Source: a virus. From it: DNA of 16,053 nucleotides. Position 1 is the first letter of the stretch. Each line of letters begins with the position of its first letter. The notes below the pieces were generated by a model, which was not told the DNA's origin, made no database searches, and saw nothing but the letters and a program-made list of their open reading frames with translations. The stretch is from the UHGV virus genome UHGV-0060588; one strand, 5' to 3'. A program made the translations under genes and the position numbers. This document shows, one piece after another, positions 2,034-10,524 of the stretch.

Positions 2034-3110
2034 TTATACCGACCTAAGATATTCAGCAACCCTGTTATCTAACGCCGCCATCTCCTTCAAGGTTAAAGGT
2101 CTACCAAAAGCGTCGACGGATATTACCCGGAATTCCTCTGGGGATATCCCACTATTCCTGAATATAGCACCGCGGGTAGGTCCGAGTGCTTCATCCACGA
2201 ACCATGCCGGTTGCTGTTTCAGGAACTCGTAATAGGTGGTGTCTGCGCTTACCTGCATACCGCCGTCCGCACCCTTAGCCGCGCGTTTTGCACCTTTATC
2301 TAGGAAGTCGAACTCCGAACTGATTACCGGTGCAGTGGTACTTCGACAATTCGGATGGGCGGGGGGCATCGGCCCCTTACCAATTTCCCACGTCATTCCG
2401 TCTCTGGCTCTGCAAATCGTACTGGTACGGCTGTCCAGTGTTGATACCCACTCGTACTTCTCGATGATGTCGTCGTTCTGGCGGTACGTCTCGTTGCGGG
2501 CTTCGTTGGATACGTGGGAAAGCGCGGTGCGAATTACAGTAGTTGCGTTTCGCTCAGAGATGTCAGCCAGCCCACCCGCGCCTACGACATTCTTAACAAT
2601 CTGCCGTGTGGTCTGGCCTTGTACGAAACCCATCTTAACGCCAGTTACCAGGCGCGCTACTTCTGTTTCGCCCCAACCATTCATCAGCTTAGTGAAGTCG
2701 ACAGGCTTGTCGCTTAATGAGAGCGGCTGAAACTCGGCAGCGGCCCACACCTGTTCAGCGGTAGGCGTAACAAATTCCGCGTCTACGTTGGCGGTCAGTG
2801 TCTTTACGTTCCACTCCGCTTCATATGCTGCCAGTTCCTTAAGGTCTTCTGTCAGCTTCGTCTGCCAGCCGCCTGTAAGTCCTGTTAATGCTTCTTCGAG
2901 GTCGCGTAACAATTTATTCAGCCGCGCGGTGCTCCGCCCGTCGTCGCCGAATAACAGCACCTGCCGTTTGATTTCGTCCCGCATCTCCTGAAGGAACGGT
3001 GCGAGGTCTTTCACTTCACCGGATGCGGTGCGTTGCAGCCATATCTGGTGGCTGATTAGAGATGTAAGTAAGCTCATAGCTAAACCCTGTGGTGCTAAAG
3101 TTAATAGCAT
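2034..3110 (-). CDS. phage head morphogenesis protein (SPP1 gp7 / Mu F-like minor head protein), 358 aa
   Basis: C-terminal signature WVSTLDSRTSTICRARDGMTWEIGKGPMPPAHPNCRST (W-x-TLD-x-RT...H-P-N-C-R) characteristic of this family, and position directly downstream of the portal gene. Confidence 0.8.
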   Translation of the reverse strand: MLLTLAPQGLAMSLLTSLISHQIWLQRTASGEVKDLAPFLQEMRDEIKRQVLLFGDDGRSTARLNKLLRDLEEALTGLTGGWQTKLTEDLKELAAYEAEWNVKTLTANVDAEFVTPTAEQVWAAAEFQPLSLSDKPVDFTKLMNGWGETEVARLVTGVKMGFVQGQTTRQIVKNVVGAGGLADISERNATTVIRTALSHVSNEARNETYRQNDDIIEKYEWVSTLDSRTSTICRARDGMTWEIGKGPMPPAHPNCRSTTAPVISSEFDFLDKGAKRAAKGADGGMQVSADTTYYEFLKQQPAWFVDEALGPTRGAIFRNSGISPEEFRVISVDAFGRPLTLKEMAALDNRVAEYLRSV

Positions 3111-4643: not shown

Positions 4644-5894
4644 TTAAAGTGCGAAAGTCACCGGGATGTTGATTACTGGCTTAACCACCGGCATCTCATA
4701 AACTACAGGATAGCCGAGAGCATCCGCCATATGGTCAATGACGCCGTCTTTAGCAGGCTCTCCGTTATCATCATATGCCTGCTGCTCCAGTGTCTTCGCT
4801 ATCTCAGGGCATAAGTGGTCGTTAACCCACAGCTTACCTTTTTCCAGCGCGGTATTCACGGCTAAAACACGGTCTTTAACCGGTGGGTTGGCGGATTTAG
4901 CGCGAACATCAAAACCGGCCTGCTGTAGTAAGGCGATATCGGAGATTGACGCCGAGTTGGTTTTGCGGTTCTTGCCGCTGGCGTCCGGGTAAACGACGAT
5001 GCGGTGGCCTTGCGACTTCCACTTCTCGGTAATCACACGCACGGTATCTGGCGTATCGAACAGGCCCTTCAGTTCTGCTACCGCGTGCCAGCCGTCTTTA
5101 CGTTGCACATACACGGCGCTGGCGTTCTTCGTAACGTTGAAGTCCTGCCCGATGTACAGCGTGTCGCCCGGTTGGATTGTCTCTTTGCTGCGATGCTTAC
5201 GTCGGTCGTAGGCGTAGTAGACGCTGCCGGATGTCAGGTTAACGAACTCCCCATTCAGATACGCGTTAATCAGTTGCGCTGGGTAAGTCTCGGTCAGCGA
5301 GCTAATGTAGTCAGGCGGCAGGAATCGCGCGTTCTCGTGGGTGGAAGCCTGCACCATTGAGTAACTCGGTGTCGGGTTCTCTTTGAACTTGGCGTAGACG
5401 AACTTGAACCCTTCCGGCGTCGTGGTGACGGAGATGTGGTTGGTTACACCAGGGATAACCAGACGCATACGGGCGACGATTTTGTTCCATGCCAGTTCAG
5501 CTTTTTCTCGGCTCAGTACGTCCAGTTCATCCACGACCGCGGCGGCGATTTTGAAACCCACAATCGAACCGGGGTTATCCATAGAACGACAGATAACCGT
5601 TCCGAGCACCGTCTTACCGCGAGTAACCACGACCTCTTTGTCTCCGGATTTAACCAGCACATCAAGGCCGAGCAGGTTAGCCGCTTCCTCGAATGTCGGG
5701 TAGAAGATGTCACGGATGGCGGGATAGGTAGGGCCGAAGTAGCCCAGGCGTGTACCAGGGTGCTTGAGCATAAACGTAAGCAGGTCAAGGCAGCCGACAA
5801 ACGTCTTGCCACTACCGAAGCCGCCTACGTAGGCCTTGTATTTGTTGTCACAATTCAGGAACAGTGCCTGCGGCGCGGATAGCTGAATACTCAT
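4644..5894 (-). CDS. terminase large subunit (TerL), 416 aa
   Basis: N-terminal ATPase with Walker A GGFGSGKT and Walker B VVDELD, and a C-terminal nuclease-like region with conserved acidic residues (IGQDFN, YPDASG). The start overlaps the TerS stop (ATGA). Confidence 0.85.
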   Translation of the reverse strand: MSIQLSAPQALFLNCDNKYKAYVGGFGSGKTFVGCLDLLTFMLKHPGTRLGYFGPTYPAIRDIFYPTFEEAANLLGLDVLVKSGDKEVVVTRGKTVLGTVICRSMDNPGSIVGFKIAAAVVDELDVLSREKAELAWNKIVARMRLVIPGVTNHISVTTTPEGFKFVYAKFKENPTPSYSMVQASTHENARFLPPDYISSLTETYPAQLINAYLNGEFVNLTSGSVYYAYDRRKHRSKETIQPGDTLYIGQDFNVTKNASAVYVQRKDGWHAVAELKGLFDTPDTVRVITEKWKSQGHRIVVYPDASGKNRKTNSASISDIALLQQAGFDVRAKSANPPVKDRVLAVNTALEKGKLWVNDHLCPEIAKTLEQQAYDDNGEPAKDGVIDHMADALGYPVVYEMPVVKPVINIPVTFAL

Positions 5895-6436
5895 TCCTCT
5901 ACCTCACCCATGTTCGTTGTTACAATTTTACCTACAGGCTCCGCAACACTGAAAATAATCTCAGTCGGTGCCGTTTCTTCGGCGGATTCAACTGGTTTCT
6001 CTTTGCCAAGGCCAAGTTTCGCAGCGGCAAACGTAGCAGAGATACCTGCAGCCCCTGTCTCAGTGAAGTATGCCTCTTCCAATGCCTGTGCTGTCTCATA
6101 GGCTTCGGCAAATGCGGGAATCTCACGCAGCCACAGCTTAATAATCGGGATAGTGACGCCGATGTGTAGGGCGAAGCGGGCCAGTGACGGTGGCTTATCC
6201 TGAATCAGCGGGCGTTCGTCACCCTTAGACGTGGGCGCAAGTTCCCATGACGTGCGGTCGAAGAACTCGATTAACGCGTCGCAATAGTCCGGGTCCCACA
6301 ACGCGGCGGAATTACGGGACGATTGATAAAGGCTCTGTTTACCGCGCGGTCGTTTACGGCGACGGTTTGCGCTAACAGCTTCTTCATGTGCAGCTTGCAC
6401 CACCTCTGGCGATGGCTGCTTGAGTTTCAGCTTCAT
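5891..6436 (-). CDS. putative terminase small subunit (TerS), about 181 aa from ATG 6436
   Basis: Directly upstream of and translationally coupled to TerL. AAGGGGA SD 5 nt before ATG 6436 (the track ORF extends to 6475). Basic N-terminal segment followed by a helical segment, consistent with DNA binding; assignment is mainly positional. Confidence 0.55.
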   Translation of the reverse strand: MKLKLKQPSPEVVQAAHEEAVSANRRRKRPRGKQSLYQSSRNSAALWDPDYCDALIEFFDRTSWELAPTSKGDERPLIQDKPPSLARFALHIGVTIPIIKLWLREIPAFAEAYETAQALEEAYFTETGAAGISATFAAAKLGLGKEKPVESAEETAPTEIIFSVAEPVGKIVTTNMGEVEE

Positions 6437-6529
6437 AGAATCCCCTTGCATATGCGTCTGACCATCAGAGCGCACCAGACGCGCCCTACGCGTCTAAAGG
6501 GATTATATAAGGGGATTAGGCAGGATGTA

Positions 6530-8247: not shown

Positions 8248-8432
8248 TTATCATCTCCGTAAAAAGCCGCCACTTGTCCAACAATGATAATAAAATCATC
8301 CATACTCACGTTAACACTAACTGATTCGTCGCTAGCACCGTCGGTACAAGTTATAGATAATGTCCCGTCCCGGCACTTCTCTATCTCCATGTAATCCCCC
8401 CAGTTATCTGTATGCTTAATCTTAGTCATCAT
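8244..8432 (-). CDS. hypothetical acidic protein, 62 aa; first gene of the accessory operon
   Basis: GGAG-type SD (GGAGTAGAGAGAA) before the ATG; sits downstream of promoter P4. Asp/Glu-rich. Confidence 0.5.
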   Translation of the reverse strand: MMTKIKHTDNWGDYMEIEKCRDGTLSITCTDGASDESVSVNVSMDDFIIIVGQVAAFYGDDK

Positions 8433-8466
8433 TTCTCTCTACTCCGTTCTCGTTGTTGATGGAGTA

Positions 8467-8495
8467 AATATAATAGGGTCTAGGATAATAGTCAA
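8467..8495 (-). promoter_or_regulatory. sigma70-type promoter P4 (TTGACT-N17-TATATT) driving the accessory operon
   Basis: Minus-strand -35 TTGACT (plus 8490-8495), 17-nt spacer, -10 TATATT (plus 8467-8472), between the lysis-operon terminator and the first accessory gene. Confidence 0.5.
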
Positions 8496-8517
8496 CTAGT
8501 CATTACGGAAAATAGAT

Positions 8518-8551
8518 AAAAAAAAAATCCCGGCTGGGTCAGGGCCGGGAT
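8518..8551 (-). terminator. strong rho-independent terminator (8-bp stem ATCCCGGC/GCCGGGAT followed by U10 on the minus strand)
   Basis: Perfect GC-rich hairpin and a run of 10 A on the plus strand (T on minus), about 65 nt downstream of the endolysin stop. Confidence 0.8.
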
Positions 8552-8615
8552 AAAACTGGAGAGTAGAGGGATGAAGCAGGAGGTGATTTAAGTATCGTAG
8601 GATTAGTCTCAGGTG

Positions 8616-9101
8616 TCAACCTTTCACCGCGCGCCCGATAGCCTCCGCCTCCTGCCACGGCTTACCGTCGAACAGCGCAAGACGCCCGGCGGTACGGCGA
8701 CGCAGACCGAGTAATGGTTTGCCGTTCTGGTTGATGAACAGCGCCAGCTTAGCCCGCAGTGTCGCAATATCACCAGAACGCAGAGCCTTACCGGTTCCGG
8801 TAGTAGCCGCAATCACACCGGCACCCGCGTTATAGACCAGGTCACACACAGCGTCGAACTGCGCCTGTGTCAGGGAGTGGTGTGCTGCCGCATCAACCGC
8901 AGCTACGGCCTTAGCCATATCGCGATTCAGTAACAGGAGGCCTTGGCCAGGGGTGATGGTCTTACCTTCATACACATGAGGGCCATAGCTTCCGTAGCCT
9001 ATGGTTAAGTATTTTTCCGAAGGTGTCGCGCGGTAGGCGGTCCCGCGGAAATCTTCCCAAGCCGCAGTAAACTTGAGGCCGTTGTCACTCATCGAGCGCA
9101 T
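8616..9101 (-). CDS. endolysin, phage lysozyme (T4/lambda-type glycoside hydrolase family 24), 161 aa
   Basis: Lysozyme signature FTAAWEDFRGTAYRATPSEKYLTIGYGSYGP (catalytic Glu/Asp/Thr context). GGAG SD 8 nt before ATG 9101, which overlaps the HNH gene end. Confidence 0.85.
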   Translation of the reverse strand: MRSMSDNGLKFTAAWEDFRGTAYRATPSEKYLTIGYGSYGPHVYEGKTITPGQGLLLLNRDMAKAVAAVDAAAHHSLTQAQFDAVCDLVYNAGAGVIAATTGTGKALRSGDIATLRAKLALFINQNGKPLLGLRRRTAGRLALFDGKPWQEAEAIGRAVKG

Positions 9102-9604
9102 AAAGAGAACTCCTTGTGGTATTTATCTCGGGCTTCGCTAGCTACTAACTCAGCGAACTCAAGGTCATCGAAGTAACCGAAAAACTTGCGCACACCTTTT
9201 TGCAAACGGATTCTCACCATCCATTTCCCTTGCTGTCTATGGACGCCTGATACTCCGCTGGTGTTGTTGCGCGATAACCCACGGTTGCGGTTGTTGTCCT
9301 GCGAGTCACATTCTCTCAGGTTACAAAACCTATTATCGTCTCTTACCCCGTTCCTGTGGTCTATCTGCCCGCTGGGCCACTCTCCTGTTATATAGAACCA
9401 TGCAAGCCTGTGTTGCCGTAGGTATTTACCTTTGAGCATGATTACTTTATACCCGTCCGGGTCTCTCCCGTCTGGCACAGTCCCTTTAGGGGCTTTTGAA
9501 CTAACCGTCTTAAGCCACGTGAATAACCCCGTGTCAGGGTTGTAATCTAAAACGCTACGAACATAGTCACGGCTAAGTTCATTATCTGAAATGTTTCGAG
9601 ACAC
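9089..9604 (-). CDS. HNH-AP2 homing endonuclease, about 171 aa from GTG 9604
   Basis: HNH motif QHRLAWFYITGEWPSGQIDHRNGVRDDNRFCNLRECDSQDNNRNRG and AP2-type C-terminus GVSGVHRQQGKWMVRIRLQKGVRKFFGYFDDLEFAEL. GTG 9604 has a GGAGGA SD 7 nt upstream; the track start at ATG 9655 has none and would overlap the upstream gene by 70 nt. Confidence 0.8.
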   Translation of the reverse strand: MSRNISDNELSRDYVRSVLDYNPDTGLFTWLKTVSSKAPKGTVPDGRDPDGYKVIMLKGKYLRQHRLAWFYITGEWPSGQIDHRNGVRDDNRFCNLRECDSQDNNRNRGLSRNNTSGVSGVHRQQGKWMVRIRLQKGVRKFFGYFDDLEFAELVASEARDKYHKEFSLCAR

Positions 9605-9854
9605 GCTTATGTCCTCCGTATGACAGCCACGCCTGTCGAATCTGACGCAGCGCAACTAATGTGATTAATGTCTCAGGCAACGTGGGCGACATGCTGCCCT
9701 GTAACAGGTGAATGCCCCCGGCAGCGCAGACAATAGCGGTCAGGATATAGAGCACCCGACCAAATAGCCCGTCGTCAACGCTGGGGTGATACACATTAAA
9801 CAGCGATGTGCCTCCGATTGCCAGCATACCGCCGAACCAGAATAACTCATTCAT
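9582..9854 (-). CDS. small membrane protein with two predicted transmembrane segments (holin/antiholin-like), 90 aa from ATG 9854
   Basis: Internal ATG 9854 has a GGAGG SD and overlaps the holin stop (ATGA); the track ORF 9582..9935 begins earlier, inside the holin gene. Two hydrophobic stretches (LFWFGGMLAIGGTSLF and VLYILTAIVCAAGGIHLL). Confidence 0.55.
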   Translation of the reverse strand: MNELFWFGGMLAIGGTSLFNVYHPSVDDGLFGRVLYILTAIVCAAGGIHLLQGSMSPTLPETLITLVALRQIRQAWLSYGGHKRVSKHFR

Positions 9855-10155
9855 CCGGGCCTCCTCGACGTGCGATGTATTCTCCGGCGACGATGCCAGA
9901 AAGGCGGGAATAGATAGGCATCCAGAGAATGGCAATGATGAATCCGAGGCCAGCTATCTCGCTCTCGCCGGTAATGCCGAACCATTGAGCCGCGAGAGGT
10001 GCGCCAAATACGGCGCAAGTGAAGCCGGTAGCGATAAAGCAGAAGCCATCGATGGGGCCAGAAATAACGGACTTATGTTGCCTTAGTCCGATTACCCCTC
10101 CGGCTAGCGCGGCAGCGAGAAGCCAGCCTGTCACTGTTTCAGTAAATTTATCCAA
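9847..10155 (-). CDS. putative holin, 102 aa, three hydrophobic segments, TTG start
   Basis: Hydrophobic segments WLLAAALAGGVIGL, FCFIATGFTCAVFGAPLAA and IAGLGFIIAILWMPIY. First gene of the lysis cassette; GGAGGA SD 6 nt before TTG 10155. Confidence 0.6.
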   Translation of the reverse strand: MDKFTETVTGWLLAAALAGGVIGLRQHKSVISGPIDGFCFIATGFTCAVFGAPLAAQWFGITGESEIAGLGFIIAILWMPIYSRLSGIVAGEYIARRGGPDE

Positions 10156-10160
10156 GATGA

Positions 10161-10200
10161 ATCCTCCAGGTGCGTATTAAGTATGCAGTAACTGGAGGAT
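10161..10200 (-). promoter_or_regulatory. RNA hairpin (9-bp perfect stem ATCCTCCAG/CTGGAGGAT) that sequesters the holin Shine-Dalgarno
   Basis: Plus 10161-10169 and 10192-10200 are exact reverse complements. In the minus-strand mRNA the 3' arm contains the GGAGGA SD 6 nt before the holin start. Confidence 0.45.
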
Positions 10201-10230
10201 ACCACGGGTAGGAATTATCTTAATAACGGT

Positions 10231-10524
10231 TTATTTGTGTCTCCAGATGTATTGTCGTCTCTGTGGCTTCGTCGGAATATCATCGTACCCCAGCGATTTC
10301 CAGTAATTAAATAACCTATTTGCGATTGCTGCGCGTTCCTGTGTTTTAAACTCACCCAGGTTAACGGCCTTCCCGTTCTGGAACCCGCAGGCGCGGACTG
10401 CTTTGCGTCTGGCTTGAATCTCAGGGTACAGCGCGTTACGGCGGCGCTTGTATATTCGGGTGTTCGTTCTCGGTGACAGCGGCGCAAGGCCGCTTCGTTT
10501 CAGGATGTCAGTTGCAAGGCTCAT
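10231..10524 (-). CDS. small basic protein with AP2-like DNA-binding segment, 97 aa from ATG 10524
   Basis: ATG 10524 overlaps the upstream stop (ATGA); the track ORF extends to 10569. Arg/Lys-rich, with GFQNGKAVNLGEFKTQERAAIANRLF resembling the AP2 GK...LG.F.T.E.A..A pattern. Confidence 0.5.
   Translation of the reverse strand: MSLATDILKRSGLAPLSPRTNTRIYKRRRNALYPEIQARRKAVRACGFQNGKAVNLGEFKTQERAAIANRLFNYWKSLGYDDIPTKPQRRQYIWRHK

Follow-up and report, generated by a model that had tools for sequence, protein, structure and literature searches.

A predicted HNH-AP2 homing endonuclease gene that opens at the native start codon of a phage endolysin gene

Endonucleases of the HNH-AP2 family, bacterial and phage relatives of the plant AP2/ERF domains in which an HNH_3 core is followed by an AP2-type domain of three strands and a helix, have been linked to homing. 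I-HmuI, an HNH nicking homing endonuclease of the Bacillus phage SPO1 (PDB 1u3e), is encoded in a group I intron of the DNA polymerase gene. The T-even phages carry a free-standing HNH endonuclease, T4 MobE, which is encoded by an open reading frame (ORF) that lies outside an intron and between nrd genes and has a start of its own. Some relatives have this ORF and others lack it, and gene conversion is reported to mobilise it along with the DNA on its flanks (PMC2790892; review PMC2988022). A lysis cassette is the site of insertion in the T5-like phages Shivani and phiR201, where a GIY-YIG homing endonuclease gene of ~700 bp between the i-spanin and o-spanin genes splits two lysis genes that overlap in relatives, so that the downstream N-terminus must be regenerated (Kongari et al., 2018, PMC6139136). 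Here we analyse an HNH-AP2 endonuclease gene located between a holin gene and the endolysin gene of the virus genome UHGV-0060588, a stretch of 16,053 nucleotides (referred to as the window, on which all coordinates are given) in which the minus strand is the coding strand for every gene treated here. Sequence and distribution suggest that this is probably a free-standing homing endonuclease gene specialised on GH24 endolysin genes of phages, at their 5' end. Its ORF opens at the native start codon of the endolysin.

The locus resembles that of MobE in consisting of an HNH-family ORF outside an intron that sits between or in conserved genes and varies in presence among relatives. As elements of the MobE type move flanking DNA by gene conversion, the short tract of endolysin sequence that travels with the gene, described below, is their expected footprint. 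Unlike MobE, which lies between the nrd genes with its own start, the ORF in the window is fused to the start and first 10 codons of its host gene and rebuilds the 5' end of that gene, and its product combines HNH_3 with AP2 and has an activity that is predicted from sequence. It shares with I-HmuI the sequence of the HNH core including the D-H...N...N residues, but no intron was detected at the window locus, and its C-terminal DNA-binding domain has the AP2 fold. The order of domains is that of the HNH-AP2 endonucleases, from which the window protein differs in that its AP2 region lies below Pfam detection. Among described loci, the GIY-YIG gene of Shivani and phiR201 comes closest in anatomy, although it concerns a different nuclease family, gene pair and phage group, and its published description does not include the capture of the downstream start codon by the endonuclease ORF (PMC6139136). 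We regard the anatomy at the present locus, the capture of a host gene's start combined with a recoded replacement, as modestly novel.

The maximal ORF at 9089-9655 opens at a TTG codon, and a GTG codon within it, at 9604, is preceded by the Shine-Dalgarno (SD) sequence GGAGG (9616-9612) at a spacing of 8 nt. Initiation at this GTG gives a gene of 516 nt and 171 amino acids (9089-9604) that matches the annotated HNH genes of phages SHAK7858 and DUEC01, and we consider it a plausible start of the HNH gene. Upstream, the class I holin-like gene (holin I, 9582-9854; phrog_2508 holin, 4.3e-32) ends in a TAA codon at 9584-9582, so that it shares exactly its final 23 nt with the HNH ORF. Up to this point the analysis agrees with a preliminary description of the locus, which had placed an HNH endonuclease gene at 9089-9655, between a holin-like gene and the endolysin, with GTG 9604 as its start and a 23-nt overlap with the upstream gene. 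The anatomical main point was absent from that description: judged by comparison with relatives that have an empty site, the GTG at which the HNH ORF opens is the native start codon of the endolysin. In these relatives, it is the endolysin that starts at this GGAGG-N8-GTG and overlaps holin I by the identical 23 nt, its sequence beginning VSRNISDNGLHFTAAWEDF. The SD at 9612-9616, identical and identically spaced in Ro145c2 and VIPECOMC04, is hence the endolysin's in empty-site phages and the HNH gene's here, while the GTG and the first ~10 codons of the endolysin (V-S-R-N-I-S-D-N-E/G-L; 9576-9604) form an N-terminal tag on the HNH protein. Over these 29 nt (9604-9576) the window is identical in nucleotide sequence to the 5' end of the empty-site endolysin except for a polymorphism at 9579. 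The sequence switches to HNH-specific sequence after the Leu-10 codon, and the endolysin resumes ~500 nt further on as MRSMSDNGLKFTAAWEDF, in a different frame from its original start. Because the empty alleles use the same SD, GTG and overlap, the insert of ~500 nt must have captured the initiation region of the endolysin together with its first 10 codons.

The endolysin (8616-9101; 161 amino acids) is identified as a GH24 enzyme by Pfam Phage_lysozyme (5.5e-24) and by the endolysin families phrog_33703 and phrog_7. Its new N-terminus MRSMSDNGLKFTAAWEDF parallels the native VSRNISDNGLHFTAAWEDF, but the duplicated codons are heavily recoded, with 11 of 13 codons differing from the Kagunavirus empty allele while 12 of 13 residues are kept. 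A second SD, AAGGAG (9110-9115), lies within the C-terminal codons of the HNH gene at a spacing of 8 nt from an in-frame ATG at 9101, and is conserved in the Salmonella Jerseyvirus S102 and in two diverged cassettes, L011 (as a GGGGAT variant) and L013. The preliminary description had the HNH stop overlapping the endolysin start as ATGA. Such an ATGA is present at 9092-9089, but its ATG at 9092 lies 17 nt from AAGGAG as opposed to 8 nt for ATG 9101, and L013, which retains the SD and the ATG corresponding to 9101, has ATA in place of this second ATG. On the strength of this spacing and of the ATA in L013, the endolysin most likely starts at 9101, as annotated in relatives, and overlaps the HNH stop by 13 nt, whereas the ATGA is probably not a functional endolysin start. 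It had further been proposed that endolysin translation is coupled to the HNH gene. We considered that RNA structure might hide the endolysin SD and so enforce coupling, and rejected this since neither 9060-9150 nor 9570-9650 is predicted to fold more stably than shuffled sequences (z = +1.1 and +0.7, respectively). With a strong SD of its own and no sequestering structure, the endolysin may be coupled to the HNH gene but would not need to be.

Several lines of evidence bear on the nature of the HNH protein. Pfam HNH_3 (PF13392) matches residues 65-106 (9287-9412), the HNH (beta-beta-alpha-metal) core, with E=1e-12 and 47.9 bits against a cut-off of 24.8, and the 'HNH endonuclease' family phrog_99 of the PHROG database matches at 1.4e-62, so that the family assigned to the ORF in the preliminary description holds. 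The protein is 96% identical in amino acid sequence to the products of the annotated SHAK7858 and DUEC01 genes and 93% to the S102 group. An alignment of 48 homologues shows D82, H83, N91 and N95 to be invariant and N104 to be at least 90% conserved. The closest solved structure by sequence is I-HmuI (E=0.0075 with the single sequence, 1.8e-8 with the family profile); the match covers the HNH core and the preceding strands and aligns the D-H...N...N residues with DH...NL...N of I-HmuI. This link comes from the sequence-profile searches only, as I-HmuI is not among the top Foldseek matches of the structure model.

The AP2-fold domain (residues ~115-162; 9119-9262) was recognised through homologues, the family profile and the predicted fold, while Pfam AP2 (PF00847) does not match the window protein itself, even at E<=10; the AP2 label of the preliminary description can thus be retained on the former grounds and not on the latter. 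Pfam AP2 is matched by 31 of the 48 aligned full-length homologues (best 1.6e-9), and positions ~107-162 of the family profile match the AP2/ERF structures WRI1 (1.5e-8), TEM1 (1.2e-5), ERF096 and AtERF1 (1.8e-3). The structure model has a mean pLDDT of 90.3 and places strands at residues 121-124, 127-133 and 139-145 and a helix at 148-162 in this region, which Foldseek superimposes on the GCC-box-binding domain of AtERF1 (1gcc; rmsd 1.2 A over 48 columns, prob 1.00) and on TEM1 (rmsd 1.0-1.4 A); the global Foldseek E-values are weak (0.03-0.4) because the AP2 domain is small. Low confidence is confined to residues 1-10, which constitute the captured tag (mean pLDDT 56), and to the last residues, which overlap the endolysin start (46). 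To assess selection, the window copy was compared with four other copies of its lineage (referred to as lineage A), leaving out the captured tag and the tail, and the resulting dN/dS of 0.05-0.12 argues that the protein is kept functional. Taken with the HNH_3 match, the invariant residues, the I-HmuI profile match, the confident model and the AP2 fold, the protein looks functional.

The preliminary description had called for a comparison with related phages lacking the gene, and this comparison shows that empty sites are the rule. With the 2-kb lysis region as a query against phage records, and presence scored where at least 80% of the query was covered, the HNH segment is carried by 2 of 173 matches, mostly from Kagunavirus, namely SHAK7858 and DUEC01. 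When the S102 version served as the query, 14 of 354 matches, mostly from Jerseyvirus, covered the HNH segment. Among 50 IMG/VR loci found via the endolysin, three are occupied, two by lineage A and one by a second lineage (B). The other 47 of these loci are empty, and the interpretation of the gene as an insertion stands. At the same position, it is already annotated as an HNH (homing) endonuclease in AG11 (gp58), SETP13, SETP7, S102 (orf58), dunkel, SHAK7858 and DUEC01. For the start capture, the co-conversion tract and the two competing lineages, we found no published analysis of the locus, within a literature coverage that is incomplete for subscription journals; a paper on KP15/KP27 (PMC5219037) concerns other sites.

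We performed a sliding nucleotide comparison of the window with Kagunavirus empty alleles on the one hand and with S102 on the other. The holin genes of the window are 82-100% identical to those of the Kagunavirus empties and 28-73% identical to those of S102. The relationship is reversed at 9540-8986, which comprises the HNH body and the 5' end of the endolysin: here the window differs from S102 at 23 of 555 nt (~96% identity), and in the last part of this segment (9139-8986) at 1 of 154 nt, while the endolysin 5' end is 52-82% identical to the Kagunavirus empties, in which the HNH body is absent. Beyond ~8968 the endolysin is again closer to the Kagunavirus empties (85-95%) than to S102 (60-92%). 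S102 provides the mirror image: outside this segment, its backbone matches that of SETP3, an empty Jerseyvirus, at 97-100% identity. By the sliding comparison and this mirror image, the moving unit consists of the HNH body and the first 115-135 nt of the endolysin. That a cassette is ~96% identical between two genera despite diverged flanking holins supports its mobility, and by these comparisons the locus is a transferred cassette with a co-conversion tract of ~115-135 nt, delimited in the window to 8968-9101 by the switch in identity between S102 and the empty alleles. The Pfam Phage_lysozyme match starts at endolysin residue 14, and the tract encodes the region of the conserved N-terminal Glu motif of GH24 lysozymes.

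The junction between the two genes shows a further peculiarity. The interval 9139-8986, which extends from the 3' end of the HNH gene across the SD and ~115 nt into the endolysin, is nearly frozen among lineage-A carriers, with 1-2 differences in 154 nt, as compared to 19-25 differences in 401 nt of the HNH body. Even L013, with a protein identity of no more than 65%, retains a core of 50 nt. Only a part of this conservation is accounted for by the SD and the 13 nt of dual coding.

The second HNH lineage was found by tblastn. Lineage B is 49% identical in amino acid sequence and occupies the same site with the same architecture in the Kagunavirus phages ZCEC5, BUCT825 and L064 and in the Jerseyvirus phages AG11, SETP13, SETP7, SB3, pink and others; here too the N-terminus is the captured one, and the endolysin is re-started as MRNISNNGIKF.... 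Between the Jerseyvirus AG11 and the Kagunavirus BUCT825, the lineage-B cassette is 95-100% identical and the holins are 32-62% identical. The two lineages have also recombined with each other: the S102 gene is an A/B chimera, in which the first ~27 codons are of type B and the rest of type A, joined in a conserved Y(N/D)PDTG motif. With regard to annotation, the lineage-B gene of BUCT825 (L007, 1501-2034) is recorded as two short ORFs where an intact ORF of 177 amino acids extends from the captured GTG, and the copy of ZCEC5 (L006, 1501-2004) is unannotated and runs to the end of the linear record.

The association with lysozyme genes extends to more distant homologues. In three metagenome homologues at 63-77% identity (P0002, P0007 and P0012), the phage backbone is a different one, yet a Phage_lysozyme gene follows immediately downstream in each case, and it is on these three relatives, whose encoding contigs were examined, that the fidelity to the site rests. 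The cassettes L011 and L013 are fused, with endolysin-like first codons in the HNH gene and the same '...FSLCAR*' / ATGCGC overlap, whereas in L016 the gene is unfused and truly intergenic: the HNH gene opens at an ATG that belongs to it alone, and the start of the endolysin, with the native MPRNISDNGLHF, follows the HNH stop by 1 nt. Still more distant relatives (42-48% identity) adjoin other genes, encoding ribonucleotide reductase, an exonuclease or an HslV-like peptidase. Such a variety of neighbours among distant relatives is usual for families of homing endonucleases. In two metagenomic contigs carrying the 65%-identical HNH protein P0007 (L014, 2117-3463; L015, 1102-2205), an IS605-type Y1 transposase gene and tnpB (OrfB_IS605/Cas12f-like) directly follow the pair of HNH and endolysin genes.

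By its in-frame fusion to the SD, GTG and first 10 codons that are native to the endolysin, the HNH ORF is expressed as a late gene of the lysis cassette. Production of the endolysin continues, since the last codons of the insert carry an SD (AAGGAG) and an ATG, followed by the recoded endolysin N-terminus. These features can be combined into a tentative course of events. The lysis transcript would yield the enzyme at a late stage of infection. In a mixed infection with a relative lacking the gene, the enzyme would then nick or cut the empty allele within a stretch of ~45 codons at the beginning of the endolysin gene, and recombinational repair from a genome carrying the HNH gene would copy in the gene together with ~115-135 nt of adjacent endolysin sequence. 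One candidate for the cleavage site lay in TTCACCGCCGCG, where the third position of the leading Ala codon had distinguished every occupied allele from the empty ones in the first ten loci; it was dropped because the 47 IMG/VR empties carry GCC, GCT or GCA at this codon and one lineage-B carrier has GCC.

Other placements of the gene were considered and set aside. An intron-encoded HNH protein of the I-HmuI type does not agree with the absence of any match to the group I and II intron families of Rfam at E<=1 within 8400-10300, nor with the translation of the endolysin 5' part as the HNH N-terminus; moreover, the HNH ORF has its own stop and the endolysin its own start, so that the gene is neither intron- nor intein-borne. 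A packaging HNH protein of the HK97 gp74 type was rejected because the terminase genes lie at 4644-6475, ~2.6 kb away, and because the gene is missing from most relatives. An internal promoter in the insert was likewise discarded, the single promoter-like match (9/12, at 9239-9210) being within chance expectation; no minus-strand terminator was found inside the insert.

Some observations weigh against active homing into this site. Two IMG/VR alleles lack the HNH gene and nonetheless carry the lineage-A endolysin 5' tract. One of them (L019) has a native ATTTCAGAT start joined to A-type sequence, the other (L021) is of the A type only from the FRG codons on, and their existence implies that the lineage-A tract does not need the HNH gene in order to move or to be maintained. 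Such alleles might have arisen when the HNH gene was lost between the two copies of the 5' end or when co-conversion was partial, or they might reflect the ancestral donor allele. Synonymous positions near the insertion are polymorphic among the 47 empties, so that a recognition site is not inferable. The dS of the HNH gene among the three Kagunavirus carriers (0.19-0.35) is similar to the divergence of the backbone, and spread within the genus is therefore not demonstrably recent. Lastly, in the near-identical sibling L058 (IMGVR_UViG_3300045988_028451), a 1-nt deletion (GGG to GG, window position 9484) shifts the frame of the HNH gene, which is either a sequencing error or an early decay of the endonuclease gene; this sibling differs from the window by 3 substitutions and 3 indels in 3.48 kb, amongst the latter also a change in the length of a T-run and a 14-nt insertion (window positions 8528 and 7831).

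Most of these points would be accommodated if the gene were passive cargo, a present or former nuclease gene that is now spread by ordinary homologous recombination and not by its own cleavage: recombination mosaics are found everywhere in the region, including the partial tracts of L019 and L021 and the A/B chimera of S102, the within-genus dS resembles that of the backbone, and one sibling copy is frameshifted. We nevertheless consider this explanation unlikely, because the catalytic residues are invariant and the dN/dS is low, because two lineages are each near-identical across genera over the HNH gene and a short flank only, and because the whole clade stays beside lysozyme genes in unrelated backbones, a pattern that is hard to obtain without a site-specific drive. 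The strong purifying selection could also be expected of a domesticated nuclease that benefits the phage, by excluding or degrading co-infecting relatives or host DNA late in infection, or by re-tuning endolysin dosage and lysis timing; expression from late lysis-gene signals and the replacement of the endolysin's GTG/GGAGG by ATG/AAGGAG, which could change its translation, point in the same direction. Such a benefit is difficult to reconcile with the absence of the gene from more than 90% of close relatives whose lysis cassette is otherwise identical, and no RNA structure suggests regulated coupling; the exclusion of markers from relatives, for its part, is normal behaviour of a homing endonuclease and no alternative to homing. 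Domestication is accordingly given little credence here. Presence and absence alone have no direction, and an ancestral component of the lysis cassette that was lost by most Guernseyvirinae might leave alleles such as L019, which resembles a possible precise loss between duplicated endolysin 5' ends. This last option appears highly improbable, given that the HNH segment is ~96% identical between genera with flanks at 30-80%, that occupied alleles carry a duplicated and recoded endolysin N-terminus, as expected for the footprint of an insertion, and that L016 exhibits an unfused intergenic state.

Beyond the reading as a free-standing homing endonuclease gene, we put forward a broader proposal, which is speculative and which we hold with some doubt. 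The HNH-AP2 clade might have evolved a distinct route for the invasion of tightly overlapping operons, a 'start-codon capture' in which the element appropriates the ribosome-binding site, start codon and first ~10 codons of its target for its own ORF and brings along a portable SD, an ATG and a recoded N-terminus for the host gene. Owing to the recoding, the two copies would be kept from recombining to a deletion, and the carrier would be spared by the enzyme it encodes. Two 49%-identical lineages would compete and recombine at one site across two genera, and the frozen junction of 150 nt would be part of the device.

The window also contains a second gene that had been described as HNH-AP2, at 1343-1963, between the head-morphogenesis gene and a Hoc-like decoration gene. 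Its product matches the 'HNH endonuclease' family phrog_953 (6.1e-78) and, in its C-terminal part, also phrog_99 over the AP2-like region. It has no Pfam match, however; IDKD replaces the DH of HNH_3, and a Lys is found where the catalytic His stands, and we therefore refer to it as an HNH-like/AP2-like accessory gene. Of 247 related records, 7 cover this polymorphic gene, all from phages without the HNH gene of the lysis cassette, and as the two genes occur in different phages their insertions are independent. The preliminary description was hence right about two independent insertions but not, by Pfam, about a canonical HNH domain. The neighbouring head-morphogenesis gene (2034-3110) has a homologue in phage Snoke that is annotated with an intein, and a capsid morphogenesis protein with an intein has been reported for the Salmonella UPWr_S phages (PMC8425127). 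With an HNH-like gene and inteins in one place, the structural module hosts several kinds of selfish elements.

As a whole, the window is part of a Kagunavirus-type (Guernseyvirinae) Escherichia coli siphophage genome, with top database matches at ~90% identity over ~72% of its length. Besides the lysis genes it encodes the small and large terminase subunits, the portal and head-morphogenesis proteins and a series of small ORFs. The lysis cassette begins with a class II holin-like gene (holin II, 9847-10155; phrog_2359 holin, 1.2e-28; labelled holin in relatives). At its other end, 3' of the endolysin, a terminator-like hairpin with a T-run (8517-8548; CCCGGC-N8-GCCGGG followed by T10) was noticed by eye; it is not listed by the consensus terminator scan, and Rfam yields only weak, sub-threshold sRNA matches there. 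A gene for an HslV-family peptidase is a present-or-absent accessory directly upstream of holin II in several Kagunavirus genomes (L003, 2948-3388; L007, 450-890) and is absent from the window; in the Xanthomonas phage Xp10, a homologue of the HNH protein (46% identity) adjoins an HslV-family gene. The 44.5-kb genome of SHAK7858 (vB_EcoM_SHAK7858, OR594183.1, L001) is classed in the database under Autographiviridae/Kayfunavirus, a taxonomy line that looks wrong because the genome is 91% identical to and collinear with the Kagunavirus lysis region of the window.

The finding leaves the general knowledge of homing endonucleases unchanged. What the locus would offer is a clear case, found in nature, in which a free-standing homing endonuclease targets a lysis gene that is both late and essential. 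Since the study material comprises hundreds of empty alleles, two competing lineages at one site, sharply bounded tracts exchanged across genera and the intergenic intermediate L016, it should be a good system for homing, marker exclusion and endonuclease-driven mosaicism. The small siphophages concerned are being developed for therapy and synthetic biology, and as the insertion alters the start codon, the SD and the first 10-45 codons of the endolysin, annotation and cloning should consider its re-started N-terminus.

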